Program-made: the position numbers and the translations under genes
Part shown: positions 2,905-54,624 of the stretch, piece by piece
Layout of the letters: each line of letters opens with the position of its first letter
Position numbering within the stretch: position 1 is the first letter of the stretch
Notes under the pieces: model-generated
The model's input: the letters and a program-made list of their open reading frames with translations, nothing else
The model's database searches: none
Told to the model about the DNA's origin: nothing
From: a virus
Taxonomy: Duplodnaviria; Caudoviricetes
Reading direction: 5' to 3' (one strand)
Virus record (IMG/VR): IMGVR_UViG_3300046170_000297
Coordinates: 1 to 60,254 of that record
Length of the DNA: 60,254 nt

Positions 2905-3914
2905 TTAATATTAAAAAATTAAATATAAAAGAAAAGATAAAATTATTTACTGAGTTATATGAAGATATATCTGGTAAGGGTATTGGTGGAGATACAGAAC
3001 TTGCACATATAAATAAATTTGAATCTACACTTTTAAAAAGCGTTGGTGGTCAAGGAAGCATTAACCCTACTACAGGATTAAAACAATATCTTGGTGGTGG
3101 TGGAGGAGGCGGAGGTGGCTCCGGTACACAAACTACAATTGCAAGAGAAGCACCAGAAGTTGAAGCTAGAAAATTAGCACTTTATGATCAAGCAGCAAAT
3201 TTAGCAAAAACTCCTGTATCTATTCCTGGTATGCAAGTTGCAGGTCTTTCTCCATTAGAGCAAGCTGGTATTACTCAAGCTGGTCAAACAGGTGTTGGCG
3301 CAGGTACTGTTACTTCTGGTATCGGATCAATACAAACCGGTATGGCAAATCCAAACATTGGACAATTTTTAAATCCATATCAACAATATGTGACAAATGA
3401 AATTGGTAGACAGGGACAAATGATGGCACAACAAGTAGGTGCTAATGCTATTCAAGCTGGAGCGTTTGGAGGAGGAAGAGAAGGAGTTCAACAAGCAGAA
3501 CTTCAAGGAAGAACACTTTCAGCTATGGGCCAAGCACAAGCACAAGGTTTTCAAACTGCACTACAAGCAGCACAAACTCAAAGACAACAACAACTTGCAG
3601 GTGGACAATTACTAGGACAACTAGGAGCACAACAACAAGCTATGAGTCTTGCAGATATAAATGCACAGATGCAAGCAGGTGCGTTGCAAAGAGGTATTGG
3701 TCAAAGAACATTAGATGCCCAAAGAGCAACAGAATTACAAAGAGCATATGAGCCTTATCAAAGAGTGGAGTTTATGAAAGGTATCATGACTAATTTACCT
3801 ACGACACAAAGTAGTATTACAGCAACCACGGCTCCCGGGGCTAACCCATTTGCACAAGCAGCAGGAACAGCATTAGGTGGATATGCAGCTTATAACATGA
3901 TGCAACCGAGGTAA
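2901..3914 (+). CDS. Internal virion/DNA-transfer (pilot-like) protein
   Basis: Gln/Gly/Ala-rich; GDTELAHIN, FLNPYQQYV and GAFGGGR motifs. Confidence 0.6.
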   Translation: MINIKKLNIKEKIKLFTELYEDISGKGIGGDTELAHINKFESTLLKSVGGQGSINPTTGLKQYLGGGGGGGGGSGTQTTIAREAPEVEARKLALYDQAANLAKTPVSIPGMQVAGLSPLEQAGITQAGQTGVGAGTVTSGIGSIQTGMANPNIGQFLNPYQQYVTNEIGRQGQMMAQQVGANAIQAGAFGGGREGVQQAELQGRTLSAMGQAQAQGFQTALQAAQTQRQQQLAGGQLLGQLGAQQQAMSLADINAQMQAGALQRGIGQRTLDAQRATELQRAYEPYQRVEFMKGIMTNLPTTQSSITATTAPGANPFAQAAGTALGGYAAYNMMQPR

Positions 3915-3916
3915 TT

Positions 3917-4781
3917 ATGGATAAAGTGTTAACAAGAAAAATGTTTAAAGACAGATACTTTAAATCATTAAAGCCAACTGTGAAACATTTTCAAGCGGGT
4001 GGTCTAGGTTCATTATCACCAAAAGAGAAAGCTATATATGCCGCAACTTTGGCTGCACCATTACTTCAAGCAAAAGGTAAAGGACTTGCTCCTGCACTAT
4101 CAGCATTAGGAGAAGGTGTTGGTAAATTACCTGCAACAATTTTATCTGTAGAAAAACAAAAAGGAACTGCACTAGATAGATCAAGAACTTTGACAGATGC
4201 AGAATTAAAAGAATATAATTTACCAAAAGGATCTATTGCACAAATAGATGGTAAAGGAAAAATTACTGTTGTATCTAAACCTTCTGCAGAATCTTTAAAA
4301 CAAATTCAAGGAAGTAAAAGAGTAAGAACTATTTTATCTAGAATTGGAGATGACTATTATAAATTAGGTAAACCTGTAGGTTTTGGTGATTTAGGTAGAA
4401 TTAGAGCATCACTTGGTAAGGTAGGTGGCTCACAATTTTCAAAAGACTACGGTGCTTTTAAAAGTAGAATACAACAAGCAACTTCATTTGTAACACAAGC
4501 GATCTCTGGTGCAGCAGTATCAGAACAAGAGGCAGAAAGAATTACAAAACTTATACCACAAGTAGGTGATACTGAAGCTACATTTGAAGCAAAGCTACAA
4601 GCATTAGATAGTTATTTTGCAGATGCTATTGCAATTGCAGAAGATAATAATGCAGACTTTACTACTGCCTTAGAGATTATGGAGGCAGTCTGGAAAAGGT
4701 GCTTCTAATTATATTGATTTAAGTGAAGGTGTTACTATTAAACAATACGGTGGTAATAAATATGATGTTAGTGCAAATTAA
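3917..4781 (+). CDS. Internal virion protein (frameshift near 4690)
   Basis: ORF 3917..4708 with an SGAAVSEQEAER motif; continues in another frame to a stop at 4781. Confidence 0.5.
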
Positions 4782-18314: not shown

Positions 18315-18516
18315 CACTAGAATCAAAGCAAAAGAATTATTCACTATTGAATTAGATCACGCTAACAACACGCTTACTTTTATAGTGAATGGTAAAGTAA
18401 TGAATGTAGCAAAAACATTCAAAGCAGAAGCCCTATTTGAAAGAATGTTAAAGATAGCAAAATTTAAATTCTTGAAGATGAGGGATCAAAAGAGAAAAGA
18501 ATATATTGAAAACTAA
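18277..18516 (+). CDS. Hypothetical protein
   Basis: Overlapping ORF within the operon. Confidence 0.55.
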   Translation: MVMMTENDLKRVDTRIKAKELFTIELDHANNTLTFIVNGKVMNVAKTFKAEALFERMLKIAKFKFLKMRDQKRKEYIEN

Positions 18517-19789
18517 ACTAAAGGTATTAGACTTATTCAGTGGGATTGGAGGCTTTAGTTTAGGTCTTCATTCCACTGATATATTTGATACAGTTAAGTT
18601 TGTAGAGTTTGATGAATTTTGTCAAAAGGTTTTAAAAAAGAATTTTCCAAACGTACCAATTGAAGGAGATATAAAAAATGTCAAAGGAAAAGAATTCGAA
18701 GCAGACATCATTGTGGGAGGTTTTCCCCTGCCAGCCGTTCAGTGTTGCAGGGAAACAAAAAGGGAGAGATGACAACCGATATCTCTGGCCAGAAATGTTT
18801 AGACTCATTAAAGAAATCAAACCCGAGTTCGTTATTGGAGAGAATGTGCAGGGACTTGTTAACCTCCAAAACGGCATGGTCCTCAGACAGGTGCAAGATG
18901 ACTTGGAAGGTGAAGGTTTCGAAGTCCAATGTTTCCTTATACCAGCTTCAGGCATCGGTGCTTGGCACCAAAGATTTAGAGTCTGGATTGTGGGCCACTC
19001 CAAACACAATGGATTACTTGCCGCCGAGAAGCGCAGCAGGGACAAAAAAATTAATGGAGGGACACAGGAAGGGCAGAACCAAACCATCGAATTTGAGAGA
19101 ACAAGTGGATCCAGAAACGATGAAGATGTATCCAACACCGAACGCAAGAGATTGGAAGGACTCAGTGAACAAGGTACCACCCTCAGTAGGGAAAACGAGA
19201 GGTCACAGTTTGGGTCAACGAATAGCAGCAGATCAAGTGAGGATGTATCCAACTCCACGATCCTCGGGACAGGAGGATGCAGAGACTCTGATCAAGAGGA
19301 AGGGAGAGAAGGCTGCAGCTCAACACAATCTGACGGCAAACGTTCAAATGTTTCCTACACCATCAGCGAGTTGTCAGTTGGATGTAGTAGCACCACCAGA
19401 GACAGTGAAGCAGAACTCATCAGGTTGGAGTGTAACGAGGGTTGGCACTGGAACCAAGTTCGGAGCCAAGTTGAACGATGTAGTGAACAAGATTTACAAC
19501 AAATACCAACACCCACGGCTCACGACTCAAAGAATGTGACGTTCCCAATCAGTCAGAAGGGGAAGTCAACAGTAGTGGGCAACATGTTAAAGAACGAAAT
19601 ACCAAAACCTGGTGGCAAATTGAATCCGACCTTTGTGGAGTTCCTAATGGGATTTCCAGAGAATTGGACAAAGATAGAGCAAGCAGAATCAAAAGTCTCG
19701 GAAACGCAATCGTCCCACAAATGGCAAGAATCTTCGGACTCGCAATCAAAAAAGTTTTATCGGACTCCGACTGCAATGGACAAGGGTGA
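18506..19789 (+). CDS. C5 cytosine DNA methyltransferase, alpha chain (apparent +1 indel near 18725, -1 near 19495)
   Basis: Motif I LDLFSGIGG, IV GFPCQPFS, VI ENV, VIII HQRFRVWIVG, and motif X RIKSLGNAIVPQ around 19697 in the original frame. Confidence 0.85.
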
Positions 19790-20180
19790 TAATAGTTTTA
19801 AGTATGCAGCCAAAATATTAAAAGGTAAATTAAATAGATCTCAGTCTAAGCAACCGGTACAGAAAACATTATCTATGGATGTGGCCATGGAGCATTTAAA
19901 AAACAATCAACATTTGATAGATGCTTATGATGAAAAATTTAAGATGAGACCACACCTCCCACCCAAAGATAATTTTTAAAATATTTAAAAGAGAACCTGG
20001 ACAAGAAAAAATTAGTTGAAGATAATATAATTAAGAAGACAACTATTGATCATTGGTTAAGATCAGATCATTGCTTTGCATATCCTACCGTTGAATATTG
20101 GAAAATGATTAAGCCATACTTAAAAGAAATTAAAGTTTGATTATCAAATGACATTTGAAATCGAGTCTGATTGGGAATAA
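18678..20180 (+). CDS. Overlapping-frame methyltransferase beta chain (TRD-like modules and motif IX)
   Basis: AAGGAG SD at 18663 before ATG 18678; open +1 frame with repeated (W/Y/F)xTP modules and LNPTFVEFLMGFPENWT; 3' end uncertain because of indels. Confidence 0.65.
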
Positions 20181-20258: not shown

Positions 20259-20467
20259 ATGACTAAACTATTACGCAACTACAAGATATGTACCGACTGT
20301 AAAGGAACGGGTCATATCGAGACTTCAAGCAATCGTTTGTATCTTGTATCATTTGCAATGGATCAGGATCCACGACTCACGGCTCATCATCAGAAGCAGA
20401 ACAAGTATTATTATTTAAAGTAGCGTGGGATTATATTAATGGCAGACAAAACGGATGGTATCACTGA
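20259..20467 (+). CDS. Small CxxCxGxG zinc-finger protein (frameshifted)
   Basis: CTDCKGTG and CIICNGSG; upstream TTGTAC-N18-TATAAT at 20198..20227. Confidence 0.6.
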
Positions 20468-44340: not shown

Positions 44341-44799
44341 ATGGCACTTGTCGTTAACGATAGAGTTAAAGAGACAAGCACTACTACAGGACAAGGAACT
44401 TTAAACCTTGCGGGTGCTTCACAAGACTTTATTACATTTGTAGCAGGTATAGGTACAACCAATACTACTTACTATTGTATTGAAAATACTGGAACAGGTG
44501 AGTTTGAAGTTGGTATTGGTACAGTAACCGATGCCACTCCAGATACTTTATCAAGAGACACAGTCATAAGTAATTCAGCAGGGAATACATCTAAAATAGA
44601 TTTTGCAGCAGGAGAAAAAAACGTATTTTGTACAATGCCTGCTAAAAGAACTATTAGTCCAGTGATGACTGCCACGGGATTCGTGGTTACTCATGCATCG
44701 ACCCTAGACCAAGATCAAACAATGGATTCTGGAGTTCTTGCAGGCCCTGTCACAATAACTGGAACTATAACTGCAACAGGAACCTTGGTAATTATATAA
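44341..44799 (+). CDS. Tail fibre hub/structural protein
   Basis: DRVKETSTTTG and EFEVGIGT; directly precedes the fibre genes. Confidence 0.6.
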   Translation: MALVVNDRVKETSTTTGQGTLNLAGASQDFITFVAGIGTTNTTYYCIENTGTGEFEVGIGTVTDATPDTLSRDTVISNSAGNTSKIDFAAGEKNVFCTMPAKRTISPVMTATGFVVTHASTLDQDQTMDSGVLAGPVTITGTITATGTLVII

Positions 44800-47700
44800 T
44801 GAGTCAATTAGAAGTAGATAAAATAATCCCACAATCAGGCACCACTCTTACATTAGGAGATTCAGGTGATACGATTAGTTTTGCAAGTGGTGTACTTCCT
44901 AATTTGGAAAATCTTACAGTTACTGGTGATTTAACTGTTGACACTAATTCATTAAAAGTAGACAGCACTAATAATAGAGTTGGGATAGGGACAGCAACCC
45001 CTAGTGTTTCATTAGATGTGGTTGGAGCTATAACTGCATCAGGCAATATAACAGGTACCCTTGCTACAGCAGCCCAAACTAATATTACATCGTTAGGCAC
45101 CCTGACTAGTTTAACAGTGAATGGAAACTTATCAGTAGATGGCGGAACAATCAAACTAGATGGTAATTATCCAACAGGAACAAGTAATGTTGCATTAGGA
45201 AATACTGCACTAGATGATGGTAGTTTAAGTGGTGGTTACAACACTGCTATTGGCGATGGGTCTATGACAGCCAACACTTCTGGTCAAACTAATACATCTG
45301 TTGGTTTTGAGTCTATGTGTGCAAATACAACAGGAGCAAATAATGTTTCTATGGGTGTTTATGCACTTAGAAAAAATATATCAGGTGGTTCTAACACTGC
45401 AATCGGTTGTGCATCACTTCAAGAAAATACAACAGCTAGTAATAACACAGCAGTAGGTTTTGAATCTTTAAAAGCTAATACGACAGGTGCAGCAAACACA
45501 GCAGTAGGTTTTGATGCACTAAAAGCTAGTACAACATCAGCATATAACTCTGCTTTTGGTAGTTATGCTTTAGACGCTAATACGACAGGTTCAAAAAATG
45601 TTGGTATAGGTTTTAATGCAGCTGGTGGTAATACAACAGGTTCAGATAACGTAGCAGTTGGTCAAAATGCTTTAAGATGTAACACAACAGCAAGTAATAA
45701 TACATCAGTAGGAACTTGTGCATTGTTTGCTAACACAACAGGAACAAACAACGTAGCTATAGGTAATGTAGCTTTACAATCAAACACAACAGCTTCAAAT
45801 AATACTGCTGTTGGAAGAAACTCACAACCAGATACAACAACAGGAGATAGAAATACCTCTATGGGTTATGCTTCTATGTTCACAAATAGTACAGGTGGTT
45901 GTAATGTAGGTATTGGATATTATGCCTTAATGAAAAATACAACAGCTTCTAACAATACAGCTATTGGTAATGAGGCTTTAGCTTGTAACACAACAGGTTA
46001 CTGTAACACTGCGGTAGGTACTTGTGCTTTAGATACAAATACAACAGGAAGTAACAACACAGCAGTAGGTTCTGCTTCACTTCCTTCTAATACTACAGGT
46101 ATAGACAACACAGCACTTGGAAGAAATGCTCTACAGTCTAATACTACAGGTAGCTATAATACAGCACTTGGAAAAAATGCTCTAGATGATAATACTACAG
46201 CTAATAATAATACAGCAGTTGGTTATAGAGCGTTATTTATAAATTCAACAGGTGCAAATAATGTAGCTGTTGGCTGTGGTTCTTTAACAGATAATACAAT
46301 AGGCGACCAGAACACAGCAGTAGGTGGAACAGCTTTAGGAGATAATACTGAAGGAGAATACAATGCAGCTTTTGGTTATAATGCTTTAAGAAAAAATACT
46401 ACAGCAAATAATAATTCAGCATTTGGTTACTATGCTTTAGCTTGTAACACAACAGGTTCAGAAAATACAGCTGTTGGACAAAAAGCATTAGTAGCTAACA
46501 CAACAGGGTGTCAAAATACAGCTGTTGGATTATCTTCAATGTTCACTAACACAACAGGTTGTCAAAATGTTGCTATGGGAAGACAATCTTTACATAATAA
46601 TACTACAGGCGATTGTAATGTTGCTCTTGGTTATAATTCTTTATTTAATAATCAGACAGCAGATAATAATACAGCAGTTGGAACTCATGCTTTATTTGCT
46701 AATACTACAGCTTCTTGTAATACTGCTATAGGAAAAAATGCAATGGCTGCAACTACAACAGGGATGTAGAAATGTTGCGGTTGGTGCTGGTGCTTTAAAA
46801 ACAAATACTACAGGAGATGCTAATGTTGCAATAGGTAGAGAAGCATTAGGTGTAGCAACAACAGCAGATAATAATACTTCTGTTGGTTTTGATTCTTTAC
46901 AAGCAAATACAACAGGTGCTGCTAATACAGCTATTGGACTTAATTCTTTATTTTCTAACACAACTGGAGAATTAAATGTAGCAGTTGGAGCAAATGCTAT
47001 GGAAAGTAATACAACAGCTGGTGCTAATGTTGCAGTAGGTGTTTATGCTATGCGTTGTAATACAACAGGTGGTGATAACGTAGCTGTAGGTTATGCTTCT
47101 ATGTATAAAAATGAAGGTGCTGGAGTTAAAAACACTGCTGTAGGTTGTGTGTCTTTATGTTCTAACACAACTGGTGATGAAAACGTAGCAATAGGGACTT
47201 TAGCTTTAGCATCTAATACAACAGGTTCTACTAATACAGCAGTAGGTACTAATGCTTTGATTTGTAACACAACAGGTTCTGCTAATACAACAGTTGGAAA
47301 AGACGCATTAGGAAAACAAACAACAGGTGCAAACAATACATCTATTGGACAAGGTGCATTAAATTCTGTTACTTCAGGATTTGGTAATGTTGCAATTGGT
47401 AATGATTCAGGTGCGCAAGGTGCTATGATTGATATTACAGGCGAAGACAATAGAGCTGTTTTTGGTCACAATAGTATAACTAATGCTTATGTTAAAGTTG
47501 CTTTTACAGTAACATCAGACCAAAGAGATAAAACAAACTTAGGTACAGTTCCACATGGGTTAGATTTTGTTAATCAACTAAACCCTGTTTCATTTCAATT
47601 TAAAAAATCAAGAGATAATGATGCACCTCATGGAGATATGAGATATGGTTTTTTAGCACAAGATATACTTGCACTTGAAGGAGATAATCCTGTTATCATT

Positions 47701-47811
47701 GATAATGAATTTGAAGATGCTTTGAAATACAAAGGTGAACATTTGGTACCAGTATTAGTCAATGCAATCAAAGAATTAACAGCTAGAATAGAGGAATTAG
47801 AAAATGAGTAG
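44799..47811 (+). CDS. Tail fibre 1: 17-aa beta-roll repeats plus peptidase S74 chaperone (indel near 46760)
   Basis: NTAVGxxALxxNTTGxx repeats; C-terminal SDQRDK...GFLAQD...LVNAIKEL. Confidence 0.85.
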
Positions 47812-50278
47812 TATTATTAAAGTAGATACAATCCAGGACCAAGCAGGTAATAATATTATCAACGAATCAAGTGATACTATTACTATCGGTGCAGCCGGTG
47901 ATACGGTTAATATAGTTGGGACACTTCAAAATAATGGTTCAGCTATACCAGGAGACATTTCTTCAGTTGTAGCAGGAACAGGTTTATCGGGTGGTGGAAC
48001 ATCTGGAGATGTAACTTTAAATGTAGAAGCAGCACAATCAGGAATTACTTCTCTTGGAACTTTATCTAGTTTAACGGTTAATGGTAATGTTAGTGTAGAT
48101 GGTGGCACAATTAAACTAGATGGTAATTATCCAACAGGAACAGGTAATGTTGCTTTAGGAGATACTGCTTTAGATTCTTTAACTTCAGGTGGTGGTAATA
48201 CTGCTATTGGTGGAGAATCTTTAACTGCTAATACATCAGGGAGTGGAAACTCAGCTTTAGGATATAGAACATTTTGTGTTAACACTACAGGTGCAGATAA
48301 CACTGCAATGGGTAGACAAGCATTAAGAAATAATGAATCAGGAGATAATAATGTTGCAGTTGGTCGTAATGCAATGGAATCTAACACTACAGCAGACAAT
48401 AACACAGCAGTAGGTTTTGAATCTCTAAAAGCAAACACAACAGGTAATTCAAACACAGCAGTTGGAGTATCATCTTCACAAACAGGCACTACAGCCTCAG
48501 ACAACACATCTGTTGGTTTTTGTTCTTTATATTCTGTGACAACAGGAGGTGCTAATGTAGCATTAGGAACTTGTGCTTTAAAATCAAATACTACTGCAGT
48601 TCACAATGTAGCTGTTGGTAAAGATGCTTTAGAAGCTAATACGACAGGTGCAGAAAATACAGCAATAGGTAAAGATAGTTTAACAGCTAACACAACAGGA
48701 GCACAAAATACAGCAGTTGGACATAGTGCTTTAAAAACTAACACAACTTGTGGTAATTTAACAGCAGTTGGTTATGGAGCGCTTTGTGCAAATACAACAG
48801 GAACAAATGATACAGCAATGGGTCATGCTTCTTTAGATGCAAATACTTCTGGTTCTGACAATGTTGGATTTGGTACAAATACTTTAGGTGCAAATACATC
48901 AGGCGGTAATAATACAGCTATTGGTAGTTGTGCTTTACAAGCAAATACAACAGCTTCTGGTAATACAGCAGTTGGTCTTAGAACATTATTAGCTAACACA
49001 ACAGGTGCATCTAATGTAGCCGTAGGTTGTGGTGCTTTAGCTGCTAACACTACAGCATCAAGAGGAACTGCTGTTGGAAGATGTGCTTTAGCATCAAATA
49101 CTGATGGTGATGCAAATACTGCTGTAGGTGACCTTGCTATGGAAGATTGTACTACAGGAGATTTAAATACTGCTATAGGTACAGAATCATTAAAAAATTT
49201 AACAACAGGTTGTTACAATGTTGCTTTGGGTAGATCATCTGCAGAATCATTAACAACAGCTGATTATAATACAGCTATTGGTTATCAATCTTTAAGAGCT
49301 GGTACGACAGCTTGTCAAAACACAATGGTTGGTGCTTTCTCTGGTGATGAAATGACAACAGGTCGATATAATGTAGGTGTAGGAGTACATGCTATTGGTT
49401 CAACAACAGATGCTGAGGGAAATACTGGAGTTGGTTATAACGTTTTAGAAAATAATACAACAGGTGATAATAATACAGCAGTAGGTTCTTTTGCTTTAGA
49501 TTCAAACACTACTGCTGACGAAAATACAGCTGTTGGATATGTTGCTTTAAGTTCTAGTACAACAGCTGCAGAAAATACAGCAATCGGCAGAGGTGCTATG
49601 CAAGTAACCACAACAGGTGCTGTAAATACAGCAATAGGAAAAAATGCTTTAAATGAAAACACTACAGGTTCTTGTAATACCGCAGTGGGTAAAAATTCTT
49701 TGGGTGATAATACAACAGGTTGTATGAATACAGCTTTGGGTCAAGATTCTGGTGCTACGTTAACTACTGGTAAGGGAAATACCCTTATAGGAAGAGAAGC
49801 TGGTTATTACGTTACAGGTGGAGGAAATGTAGTTGTTGGTGGACCAAGCACTAACGGTGGTTATACACCTGCTTTCAATATAACAAGTGAAGATAACAGA
49901 GTAGTAATAGGAAATAGTTCTGTAACTAATGCTTATGTAAAAGTAGCTTGGACGGTTACATCAGATCAAAGAGATAAAACTAATTTTAATATAGTTCCAC
50001 ATGGTTTAGATTTTGTAGAAAAGCTAAAACCTGTTTCATTTCAATTTAAAAAATCAAGAGAAGATAATACCCCTGATGGTCCTAAACATTATGGATTTAA
50101 AGCACAAGATATTATGACTTTAGAGGGAGATAATCCTGTAATTATTGATAATGAACAACCAGAACATTTAAGATACAAGGGTGAACATTTAGTCCCTGTA
50201 TTAGTCAATGCAATACAAGAACTATCAGAAGAAAATAAAGACTTGAAATCTAGAATAGAAGCTTTAGAAAGTAACTAA
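47804..50278 (+). CDS. Tail fibre 2: 17-aa repeats plus S74 chaperone
   Basis: Same architecture; SDQRDK...GFKAQD. Confidence 0.88.
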   Translation: MSSIIKVDTIQDQAGNNIINESSDTITIGAAGDTVNIVGTLQNNGSAIPGDISSVVAGTGLSGGGTSGDVTLNVEAAQSGITSLGTLSSLTVNGNVSVDGGTIKLDGNYPTGTGNVALGDTALDSLTSGGGNTAIGGESLTANTSGSGNSALGYRTFCVNTTGADNTAMGRQALRNNESGDNNVAVGRNAMESNTTADNNTAVGFESLKANTTGNSNTAVGVSSSQTGTTASDNTSVGFCSLYSVTTGGANVALGTCALKSNTTAVHNVAVGKDALEANTTGAENTAIGKDSLTANTTGAQNTAVGHSALKTNTTCGNLTAVGYGALCANTTGTNDTAMGHASLDANTSGSDNVGFGTNTLGANTSGGNNTAIGSCALQANTTASGNTAVGLRTLLANTTGASNVAVGCGALAANTTASRGTAVGRCALASNTDGDANTAVGDLAMEDCTTGDLNTAIGTESLKNLTTGCYNVALGRSSAESLTTADYNTAIGYQSLRAGTTACQNTMVGAFSGDEMTTGRYNVGVGVHAIGSTTDAEGNTGVGYNVLENNTTGDNNTAVGSFALDSNTTADENTAVGYVALSSSTTAAENTAIGRGAMQVTTTGAVNTAIGKNALNENTTGSCNTAVGKNSLGDNTTGCMNTALGQDSGATLTTGKGNTLIGREAGYYVTGGGNVVVGGPSTNGGYTPAFNITSEDNRVVIGNSSVTNAYVKVAWTVTSDQRDKTNFNIVPHGLDFVEKLKPVSFQFKKSREDNTPDGPKHYGFKAQDIMTLEGDNPVIIDNEQPEHLRYKGEHLVPVLVNAIQELSEENKDLKSRIEALESN

Positions 50279-51666: not shown

Positions 51667-54624
51667 GTGAACTTAAAGTTAACAAAATCAGTCCAAGGAA
51701 TAGTACCACTGTCACAATGGGGGACAGTGGTGATACCTTTACTATACCATCTGGAGTCGCATTAAATATACAAGGTTCAGTTTCTGGATTTACTTCTACA
51801 GGTATTGATGACAATGCAACATCAGTTTCAATAACTATTGATAGTTCAGAAAATGTTGGAATTAAAAATACAAGTCCAGCGACCGCTTTAGATGTTACAG
51901 GCACAATAACTGGAGATGGATTAACTGTTGCTGGTAATGTTAGTGTAGATGGTGGTACAATCAAACTAGATGGTAATTATCCAACAGGAACATCAAACTT
52001 AGGTTTTGGAGATAATGCTTTATGTTCTATTACATCTGGTGCAAGATTTAATACAGCTATTGGAAATAATGCTTTATGCACACATACTTCAAACGATAAA
52101 AATACTGCTGTAGGAAATCAAGCATTAAGAGATAATACAGGTGGTTGTAATACAGCTGTTGGACATGATTCAATGGTTAATAACGGTGCCGGACAATGTA
52201 ATGTTGCAGTAGGACATGGTTCTTTATCTAATAATACGACAGGAGATTTTAATACTGCAGTAGGATTTAATGCATTAAATTCTAATACGACAGGAGAACC
52301 GAATACAGCAGTAGGTTTTTGTGCTTTAGAAGCTAATACAACAGGAGTTAATAGCACTGCAGTTGGTGCCAATACTTTAATAAATGCCACATCAGCAAAT
52401 AATAATACTGCCATTGGTTCTTGTGCTTTGAATGCTGCTACTACAGCAGCAAACAACACTGCAGTGGGATTTTCAGCACTTGATACTTTAACAACAGGTT
52501 GTGAAAATGTTGCAGTTGGTAGAGATACTATGTTTGCAGGTACAACAGCTTGTAGAAGTGTAGCTGTTGGTTATAGAGCATTAAAAAGTGTTGACAACTG
52601 CTGCTAATAATGTAGGAGTTGGTTATCATGCTTTGTGTACTAACACAACAGGAACTTCAAATGTAGCAGTAGGTAACAATGCTTTAAAAACTCAAACTAC
52701 AGCAGATGGTAATACAGCTATTGGTTCAGATACACTTTGTACAATTACATCTAGTGCTGGTGGAAATACAGCTGTTGGACAAAAAGCATTAGAAGATGAT
52801 ACAACAGGTTATTATAATGTAGCAATAGGTTCATTATCATTATGTCAAAACACAGAGGGTGCTTGTAATGTTGCAATCGGTAGAGAAGCATTAAGAAATA
52901 ATACAACAGCTTCAAATAACACAGCAGTTGGAAAAGATAGTTTAAAGGCTAACACAACAGGTGCAGACAACACAGCAGTAGGTGGAGAAGCTTTAATAGC
53001 AAACACTACAGGAGCAAATAATACTTCAGTTGGTAAAAACTCTATGTTGGGAAATACTGAAGGAGCAAGTAATACTGCTTTAGGAAATAATGCTTTACAA
53101 TGTAACACAACAGCAGATAACAACACAGCAGTAGGTAGATGTGCTTTAAGGTCTAACACAACAGGTGCATCAAATACAGCAGTAGGAGTACAAGCATTAT
53201 TAAGTAATACAACAGCAGACAACAATACAGCTGTTGGTAGAGAATCTCTTTGTGCAAATACTACAGGTGCAGGTAATTCTGCACTAGGTCAATCATCACT
53301 TTTTAAAAACACAACAGGAAATCAAAATACAGCAGTCGGTAGAAGTGCTTTGATTTGTAACACAACAGCTTCTAACAACACCGCAGTAGGTTTTGAATCT
53401 TTAAGAGTTAACACAACAGGTGCAAATAATACTGCAGTTGGAAAAGATTCATTAAAAGAAAATACGACAGCATCAGGAAATACAGGTGTTGGAGAAAGTG
53501 CTTTAGAAGTAACAACAACTGGTTGCTGTAATACAGCAGTAGGAAATGGTGCGTTACAAGCTAACACTACAGGTGATAATAATGTAGCAGTTGGTCAAGC
53601 CGCTTTAGCTTTTGCTACGACAGCAGATAATAACGTAGCAATTGGAAGACAAGCTTTATTTTGTAACGTAACACATGTTTCTAACACTGCTTTAGGTACA
53701 TGTGCATTATTTTGCAATACAGCTCATAATAATACAGCGGTAGGTATAAATGCATCTGCATTAAGTACAACAGCAACTTGTAATGTAATAATGGGAGTTA
53801 GTGCAGGTTCTGCTGTTACAACGGCAAGCTCAAATGTATTTATAGGTCATGAAGCTGGTAGTACTACTACAACAGGTGGTAATAGTGTTGGTATTGGTAG
53901 AAGAGCAAAAACAGGAACTACTGGCGGTTCTAACAATATAATTGGCGGAGATAGCGGAGGATCTATAACTAGTGGTTATTACAATAATGGTATGGGAAAT
54001 TCTCATTTTCCAAGTTTAACCACAGGAACAAATAATATTGCAATAGGTCATGATTCTGGTTCTAAGTTAACAACTGGTTGTGATAATATTATGATGGGTT
54101 ACAAAACATGTACCCTTTATGCATCTTCAGAAAATACTATTCTCATAGGTCATGGAGATGGTATTAATAGCTTTGTCGGTGGCGAGAACAATACTATTAG
54201 AATGGGTAAAAGAACTGCTAACATCAATAATGACTTTAGTTCAAATGCAAACTGGTCTCACTCATCAGATGCTAGATATAAAAAAAATGTACAAGACAAT
54301 ACAATAGGTTTAGATTTTATAAATGATTTAAGAACAGTTACTTATCAATGGAAAGCACAATCAGAATTAGATCCATCATTAGATGAGTATGACAAAGATA
54401 AAACTAAAGCAGATTCTTCTAAAACACAACATGGTTTAATTGCTCAAGAAGTAAAAGCAAGTATGGATAAATTAGGTATTACTGAAGATTTTGCAGGTTG
54501 GAGTAAAGATACATTTCACAAAAATGAAAAACAAAGTATTTCTGAAAGTATGTATGTAATTCCATTAATAAAAGCAATTCAAGAATTAAAAGCAGAAATA
54601 GACGAATTGAAACAAGGTAGGTAA
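51663..54624 (+). CDS. Tail fibre 3: 17-aa repeats plus S74 chaperone (indel near 52590)
   Basis: Same repeats; SDARYKKN...HGLIAQEV. Confidence 0.85.

Follow-up and report, generated by a model that had tools for sequence, protein, structure and literature searches.

The closest described counterpart of the gene treated here is M.EcoHK31I of Escherichia coli HK31, a cytosine-5 (C5) DNA methyltransferase recognizing YGGCCR (Lee, Kam and Shaw 1995), whose beta polypeptide is encoded inside the alpha gene in another reading frame (PMC2836561, PMC3404938). As these papers describe the enzyme, alpha carries motifs I-VIII and X together with what is predicted to be the target recognition domain (TRD) while beta carries motif IX, both polypeptides are needed, and the N-terminus of beta is needed for association. 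In the CC-licensed text of PMC and bioRxiv, we found no description of a phage family with such a two-frame design, M.EcoHK31I being the sole described precedent. The subject of the present work is a methyltransferase gene at positions 18506-20180 of the linear, 60,254-base IMG/VR virus record IMGVR_UViG_3300046170_000297 (completeness estimate, 78%), which we refer to in its full length as the window. Comparison with related sequences identifies this locus as a marine-phage member of a large family of two-frame C5 methyltransferase genes, in which an alpha and a beta chain would be read from the same stretch of DNA.

The C5 methyltransferases of the Bacillus phages SPR, phi3T, rho11 and H2 are orphan enzymes made as a single chain in one frame, and each of their recognition domains has a proven target. 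The recognition domains of these multispecific enzymes stand in tandem, as described in PMC8936443, and the phage family resembles them, by description, in having a tandem row of several short units that separates motif VIII from motif IX. M.AquI is a two-subunit C5 methyltransferase that is split in the variable region and has an alpha without motif X, according to the account in PMC3404938. Two further groups may have a link to the nested family: M.BatI, described in PMC8936443 as a small orphan prophage enzyme that has a very short TRD and is active from its native gene, and the phage C5 methyltransferase clades III-VI of PMC8256090, which are described there as differing in IX, X and TRD and among which no activity was detected for clades III and IV.

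Likened by description alone, the phage beta is nested in alpha as in M.EcoHK31I, with motifs I-VIII and X on alpha and motif IX on beta, and an earlier sequence-only reading of the window was right to name this enzyme as the precedent, judging from its description in PMC2836561. The beta N-terminus of M.EcoHK31I has its parallel in the phage beta N-domain, where our modelled contact lies. The two systems differ in that the TRD of M.EcoHK31I is predicted on alpha, whereas in the phage family the variable modules are on beta and the alpha segment between motifs VIII and X is a predicted disordered linker. In addition, the phage beta N-domain is written over the catalytic motifs, unlike M.EcoHK31I as described, and M.EcoHK31I has one recognition site. 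When plasmids were searched by tblastn for the beta N-domain, only Bacillus, Paenibacillus and Lacticaseibacillus records came up, with no Enterobacterial member among them. M.AquI is likewise a natural heterodimer, and a phage variant (P0175) has motif IX followed by motif X on its beta-like chain, as the beta of M.AquI does; the M.AquI genes as described are, however, not nested over ~1 kb, in contrast to those of the phage family.

Two overlapping frames in the window and its relatives

In the window, one C5 methyltransferase lies in pieces across the three forward frames, where the frame is given as the coordinate modulo 3. We assigned the pieces to the two candidate chains as follows.

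18506-18728, + strand, frame 2: N-terminal part of alpha, from a TTG start through motif I (DLFSGIGGF, 18530-18556) to GGFP (18716-18727); PF00145; ends at a four-C run with one extra base
18663-18680, + strand: start of beta, with AAGGAG at 18663-18668, an in-frame TAA at 18672-18674 and ATG at 18678-18680, all within the alpha codons E-G-D-I-K-N-V
18726-18995, + strand, frame 0 after the extra C: alpha motifs IV (PCQPFS, 18726-18743), VI (GENV, 18837-18848) and VIII (QRFRVWIVG, 18969-18995); PF00145
18769-18990, + strand, frame 1: beta N-domain (from MTTDISGQ at 18769 to LQASVLG) over alpha motifs IV-VIII, assigned from third-position diversity, profile and modelled contact
18991-19499, + strand, frame 1: beta modules 1-4 (WATPNTMD, 18991; MYPTPNARD, 19126; MYPTPRSS, 19243; MFPTPSAS, 19348), read in frame 0 as the low-complexity linker of alpha
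19499-19500, + strand: site of a 13-nt deletion (CACAGACAAGAAT in the relatives L013 and L005), which shifts both chains by one frame
19503-19670, + strand, frame 0: beta module 5 (IPTPTAHD, 19503) and motif IX (LNPTFVEFLMGFPENWT, 19620-19670)
19610-19789, + strand, frame 2: C-terminal part of alpha, WWQIESD...GNAIVPQ, with motif X at 19700-19720, to the stop
19758-20180, + strand, frames 0, 2 and 0: C-terminal extension of beta, with module 6 (YRTPTAMD, 19758) and a tail (TIDHWLRSDH...FDYQMTFEIESDWE); intact in P0001 and P0057

All C5 methyltransferase motifs (I, IV, VI, VIII and X) are present in the window, but they are spread over frames 2, 0 and 2. Reading the window frame by frame, we found the named motifs where the sequence-only reading had placed them, and the low-information DVSNT, DVSNS and NVSYT strings that it had taken for an alpha linker are the xYPTP codons read in frame 0. 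Pfam PF00145 matched both the 88-aa open reading frame (ORF) in frame 2 (E 3.4e-17, profile 1-70) and the 433-aa ORF in frame 0 (E 2.9e-29, profile 68-300), while a Pfam search with the frame-1 ORF gave no match. The intact alpha of a near relative, L003, is a single ORF that matches TIGR00675 (E 6.1e-47) over profile positions 1-321 of 329.

With the frame-1 piece as query, viral contigs yielded 128 relatives, from which 80 loci were kept; 81 loci entered the layout count. Motifs IX and X were both matched in 70 of the 81, and in all 70 the frame of motif IX and the modules is the frame of motif X +1. Motifs VI and X share one open frame in 69 of these 70 loci, the remaining locus being cut by the contig start. 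The other 11 loci are either contig-end cuts with both frames open or were missed by the IX pattern, and none of them is broken or contradicts the layout. A complete alpha ORF, from motif I to motif X, occurs together with a complete beta ORF in 60 loci (49 distinct sequences). The overlap between alpha and beta spans 590-1334 nt across the 70 loci, the lower value being that of L001, and 670-1330 nt in the complete loci; the window itself shows this nested layout only after allowing for four indels. The comparison supports the proposal that two chains are encoded in overlapping frames, alpha with motifs I-VIII plus X, beta with the xTP modules and motif IX. The canonical C5 arrangement has a single chain with the TRD and motif IX placed between motifs VIII and X, whereas here motif IX and the modules are found in the alpha+1 frame. 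The signature of the beta N-domain, ..SGQ.C...LLTSKTAW...W K.K..K....QL, is present in the window at 18769-18990 and belongs to a family alignment with 30 invariant columns.

The marine phage KT997847.1 (L001), which is 71% identical, has motifs IV-VIII, the linker and motif X in one unbroken frame, and its next frame holds a 196-aa ORF with two xTP modules and motif IX. At 3004-3930 of this record, the GenBank annotation covers an 81-aa fragment with motif I and the 196 aa of the beta frame, not the alpha frame, and a frame shift at an A run parts motif I from motif IV.

Within 19620-19720 of the window, ~24 codons are conserved in both frames, reading GGKLNPTFVEFLMGFPENWT in beta and WWQIESDLCGVPNGIS in alpha. 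Past these codons, beta reads the motif X DNA as a linker to its own C-terminal extension.

The start of beta and selection on both frames

In 43 of the 49 distinct loci, the beta frame has its first ATG one codon after a stop, with GAAGGAG/GAGGAGG 9 nt upstream. The six divergent loci use another ATG, in four of the six behind AAAGGAG. At the beta start, alpha reads E-G/E-D-I-K/R-N/D-V, and the relevant synonymous choices among these codons (GGA, GAT, ATA, AAT or GAT, GTC) are fixed in 43 of 43 main-group loci. The conserved Shine-Dalgarno sequence and ATG, together with the invariant synonymous sites, bear out the start that had been proposed at ATG 18678 behind AAGGAG. Since relatives do not keep the Met of MTTDISG further downstream (variants: TTT, VTT, TIT), we take ATG 18678 as the start used by the family. 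A second suggestion about this region, that QTSLW in the leader is a beta-clamp-binding motif, found no support: the string is the +1 reading of the conserved ADIIVGG of alpha, beta residues 10-30 show near-background variability at the third positions of alpha and are predicted to be disordered, and the motif is absent in the divergent subgroup.

Stop codons were counted over the 49 distinct loci, and the expectation for the alpha frame was obtained by resampling the synonymous codons of beta from the region's own usage, which is conservative. Over the module region, the alpha frame contains 0 stops in 9159 codons against 390.7 expected, and the third frame contains 769. In the converse test, over the alpha core, the beta frame contains 0 stops in 5548 codons against 107.8 expected, and the third frame contains 353. 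The beta frame is kept open in the homologues, in keeping with the two-chain proposal.

Third-position diversity in alpha is 0.378 in the 50 codons before the beta ATG and 0.166 in the overlap, and it is as low as 0.04-0.12 at codons +50 to +90, where beta reads ...LLTSKTAW...WKVKVSKSNV.LYQLQ. Over beta residues 10-30 the diversity is back to 0.30-0.39, indicating that the leader of beta is loose. In the module region, the changes per site at beta positions 1, 2 and 3 are 0.233, 0.203 and 0.375. The amino-acid identity of beta exceeds that of alpha in 657 of 658 pairs, in alignments that were made on beta and thereby favour it somewhat.

The G+C content of the window rises from ~0.30 to 0.46-0.50 over 18700-19500. 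In the family, the overlap has a G+C content of 0.449 between flanks of 0.307 and 0.324, and the non-overlapped N-terminus of alpha is at 0.303 (41 of 41 loci). Horizontal transfer was considered as the cause of this island and rejected, the alpha N-terminus having the G+C content of the flanks. Because the rise starts at the overlap, the island is better explained by dual coding than by foreign origin, and a G+C rise that begins exactly at an overlap offers a simple signature for finding other dual-coding genes.

Modelled alpha-beta complex

We modelled the complex of a short member of the family, L054, with an alpha of 314 aa and a beta of 230 aa, each supplied as a family alignment. The interface score ipSAE was 0.89, 0.89 and 0.84 in the three runs, while the best of three controls scored 0.00. 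The runs share at least 76% of their contacts, with a partner pLDDT (predicted local distance difference test) of at least 64. This model, a test already suggested along with the two-chain proposal, supports binding between alpha and beta. In the predicted complex, the motif IX region touches motif X of alpha, and a less expected contact joins the strand at beta 81-90, in the N-domain, to the alpha strand that precedes motif VIII (139-156).

When the alpha of a relative was modelled alone, residues 1-168 folded well, residues 169-293 had a pLDDT below 50, and the last helix was again confident. Beta alone reached a pLDDT of 62.9 and a predicted template modelling score (pTM) of 0.29, with residues 1-25 below 50. 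In the PDB, Foldseek found nothing that matched this beta model at E <= 0.001, which is uninformative because the model is weak.

A proposed two-chain enzyme from one stretch of DNA

Taken as a whole, the observations are best explained by a two-polypeptide C5 methyltransferase made from one DNA stretch, with the indels of the window as likely contig errors; we give this reading a probability of roughly 0.8. In this enzyme, alpha would be read from TTG 18506 and would comprise the S-adenosylmethionine-binding and catalytic core (motifs I, IV, VI and VIII) and the motif X helix, with a long disordered linker between them. Beta would be read one base on, from its own Shine-Dalgarno sequence and ATG 18678, and would consist of a short loose leader, the conserved N-domain over motifs IV-VIII, an exchangeable xTP array in the usual place of the TRD, and motif IX. 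The alpha linker would be the -1 reading of the module array of beta, in which stops are avoided to let alpha extend as far as motif X. The two chains may then assemble into one enzyme, the beta N-domain strand joining the alpha sheet and motif IX packing on motif X, and the product would probably act as an orphan phage methylase in the replication module. Dual coding over ~1 kb across thousands of phage genes would make this one of the longer conserved same-strand overlaps, and both of its products would be parts of one enzyme.

Several points weigh against this reading. Relatedness among the loci leaves the stop counts less than fully independent. The binding of alpha to beta rests on a model; 58 of 80 solved complexes, but also 2 of 110 mismatched pairs, attain the ipSAE mark used, counts that give only a rough calibration because we used our own alignments, and, since the contact of motif IX on motif X is canonical in solved single-chain C5 methyltransferases, part of the ipSAE pass may reflect memory. 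Five proteins (P0047, P0102, P0103, P0164 and P0193) cross between the frames, and some frame-crossing product is possible. The window's copy as deposited makes neither chain whole, its 13-nt deletion is atypical for a base-calling error, and the best sequencing run contained 0.59 of the sampled words, so that real decay keeps some weight.

Frame breaks in the copy of the window

Compared with its near relatives, the methylase of the window has four frame-breaking indels: one extra C in the run at 18725-18728, a gap of 13 nt (CACAGACAAGAAT) after 19499, a single-base loss near 19970 and, near 20132-20135, a single-base gain. The sequence-only reading had corrected one extra base at ~18725 and one missing base at ~19495. 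The first is confirmed as a C in the run, since 76 of 76 matched motif IV sites in related loci are one base shorter and 7 of them are identical to the window minus one C. The second turns out to be the 13-nt deletion, whose missing sequence is present in contigs of runs X1, X4 and X12, and the number of corrections has to be raised from two to four. Phase variation at the C run was rejected, as the run is only four C long.

The breaks at 18725-18728, 19499, ~19970 and ~20132-20135 could also be true mutations of a real pseudogene, in which case the methylase of this phage would be dead. The length of the deletion would fit this account, and the relative KT997847.1 is also broken between motifs I and IV. 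However, the contig has six more 1-nt indels in five other conserved genes, at about 20330, 21560, 28277, 30384, 31592 and 36934, and these genes are unbroken in relatives. When the window was compared with two nearly complete relatives, 11 of 55 of the relatives' ORFs were split in it, corresponding to these six indels and five genes. One of the split genes encodes 778 aa in a relative and occupies three frames in the window; in 26 of 26 other loci a 72-aa CxxCxGxG gene has no break, nor does a 75-aa gene in 18 of 18, and the window has both of them split. The contigs of four other runs, where they bridge the sites, have none of the four methylase indels (no contig of runs X1 and X11 bridges 18725), and few copies in the family are broken, namely those of the window and L001 among 82. 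Because the same contig carries these further indels in conserved genes, contig error is likelier than decay: from the sequence comparison, we consider the four indels to be probably errors of the contig, and a pseudogene to be a possible explanation that falls clearly short of this.

The 72-aa gene lies at 20259-20464, downstream of the methylase, and has two CxxCxGxG motifs in relatives.

Module array of beta

Ahead of motif IX, beta carries two to seven xTP modules, with 4, 10, 15, 9, 10 and 1 of the 49 loci having 2, 3, 4, 5, 6 and 7, respectively, and in 17 of the 49 loci one or two further modules follow motif IX. The window has five modules before motif IX and one after it, which agrees with the six TRD-like modules that had been counted there. 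Grouped at 50% identity, the 210 modules make up 38 types; their median length is 44 aa. The ATPNTMD type is always first, while the other types occur at positions 2 to 7. As had been proposed, the array is cassette-like, its number and order varying between relatives, and cassette exchange between relatives is observed at the level of sequence.

The sequence-only reading went further and took beta for a multispecific, cassette-expandable chain in which each xTP module is a separate TRD, protecting the phage from several restriction systems. The variation from two to seven modules of 38 types behind a fixed first type would suit this idea, as would the tandem recognition domains described for the Bacillus phage multispecific methyltransferases in PMC8936443, and the neighbouring ORFs that were searched included no restriction gene. 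However, beta shows no sequence or fold link to known TRDs, with no Pfam family and no PDB match (the latter from the weak beta model), and the modules might instead build a single composite surface for recognition, or serve as spacers. We therefore regard separate recognition domains as doubtful. We suggest only as a tentative idea that the xTP cassettes are exchangeable recognition units, which would make beta shuffleable and possibly multispecific, with the N-domain, written over the catalytic motifs, as an evolved glue replacing a covalent link. On this idea, since alpha has to read the cassette DNA as well on its way to motif X, gaining or losing a cassette would also make a disordered tether in alpha longer or shorter, and each cassette would need to be free of stops in two frames. 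Many of the phage methyltransferases that annotation or expression work has treated as single genes would then lack the hidden chain and be incomplete, which could account for published phage C5 methyltransferases that are inactive or oddly small. The array could be used to test how phages alter or broaden their methylation specificity.

A small domain (TIDHWLRSDHCFAYPTVEYW...) at 19982-20180, which has no Pfam match, comes after motif IX in the group of the window. In other members (P0073, P0102, P0103, P0229 and P0245) it sits between xTP modules.

Alternatives to two chains

The same DNA might instead yield one chain, if the ribosome shifted by +1 after motif VIII into the modules and by -1 after motif IX to reach motif X. 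The order of the DNA, I-IV-VI-VIII, modules, IX and X, is that of a single-chain enzyme, and P0047 reads motifs IX and X in one frame. With such shifts, however, the alpha frame over the modules would have no need to be open, yet it lacks every one of the 390.7 expected stops. Moreover, the conserved Shine-Dalgarno sequence and ATG of beta lie ~300 nt upstream of the supposed shift site, and the beta N-domain, also upstream of it, is under protein-level constraint. We consider a frame-shifted single chain very improbable and prefer two separately started chains. That the beta frame is open merely as an untranslated by-product of composition is hardly credible: the higher G+C content of the overlap does lower the number of stops, but over the whole overlaps the third forward frame runs into 1298 stops in 16,717 codons, the region's own codon usage still predicts the 107.8 stops that are absent from the beta frame, the synonymous sites of alpha are frozen in the overlap, and motif IX, required by every C5 methyltransferase, is found only in the beta frame.

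Breadth and annotation of the family

A profile of the beta N-domain and first module matched 3633 clusters (at 50% identity) when the cutoff was E <= 0.001 and 1387 when it was E <= 1e-10, and most of the matches start near beta residue 31. The beta piece of the window matches phrog_1008 (E 9.7e-21), while no Pfam or NCBIfam model matched beta. Proteins of the alpha type are abundant and carry PF00145; their PHROG families are phrog_363 and phrog_116. Beta is mostly unannotated or called hypothetical, and because of this and the lack of a Pfam or NCBIfam model, the second chain would be missed by methylase catalogues, specificity predictions and codon-optimised constructs.

Among cultured phages, 62 records match, of which 54 are Paenibacillus larvae phages. 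In Paenibacillus phage Tadhana (NC_048691.1), gp55 (235 aa) is located in the +1 frame inside gp54 (357 aa), both are annotated as DNA methyltransferase, and gp55 matches phrog_1008 with an E value of 1.6e-74. This pair has the same layout and belongs to the same family as the locus of the window; it is shorter, with three xTP modules in the Tadhana beta, and comes from a phage of a Firmicute host. Two P. larvae phage genome papers list the genes and, in the passages that concern them, do not discuss the nesting. The same frames occur in Bacillus phage yong1, Lacticaseibacillus phage R23.9 and a B. thuringiensis plasmid, where only alpha is annotated. A scan of genome contigs gave 2 loci in metagenome-assembled genomes, with patterns so narrow that the count is no measure of absence from bacteria.

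We looked for a true single-chain relative among the best 120 of 180 longer proteins matching the profile and found none, which is weak evidence. The PF00145 carriers P0102 and P0103 were candidates from this set and, by reading, proved to be frame-crossing chimeras. In the variant P0175, the beta-like chain has motif IX and then WWFEPD...GNSIVPQ (motif X) in the same frame, and its N-terminus is the +1 frame of GGFPCQP.

Elsewhere, the window encodes a primase, helicases and tail-spike-like proteins, and a family A DNA polymerase gene lies directly upstream of the methylase. The ORFs at 44799-46769, 47804-50278 and 52588-54624 are large paralogues that match the same tail-spike/virion structural PHROG families.

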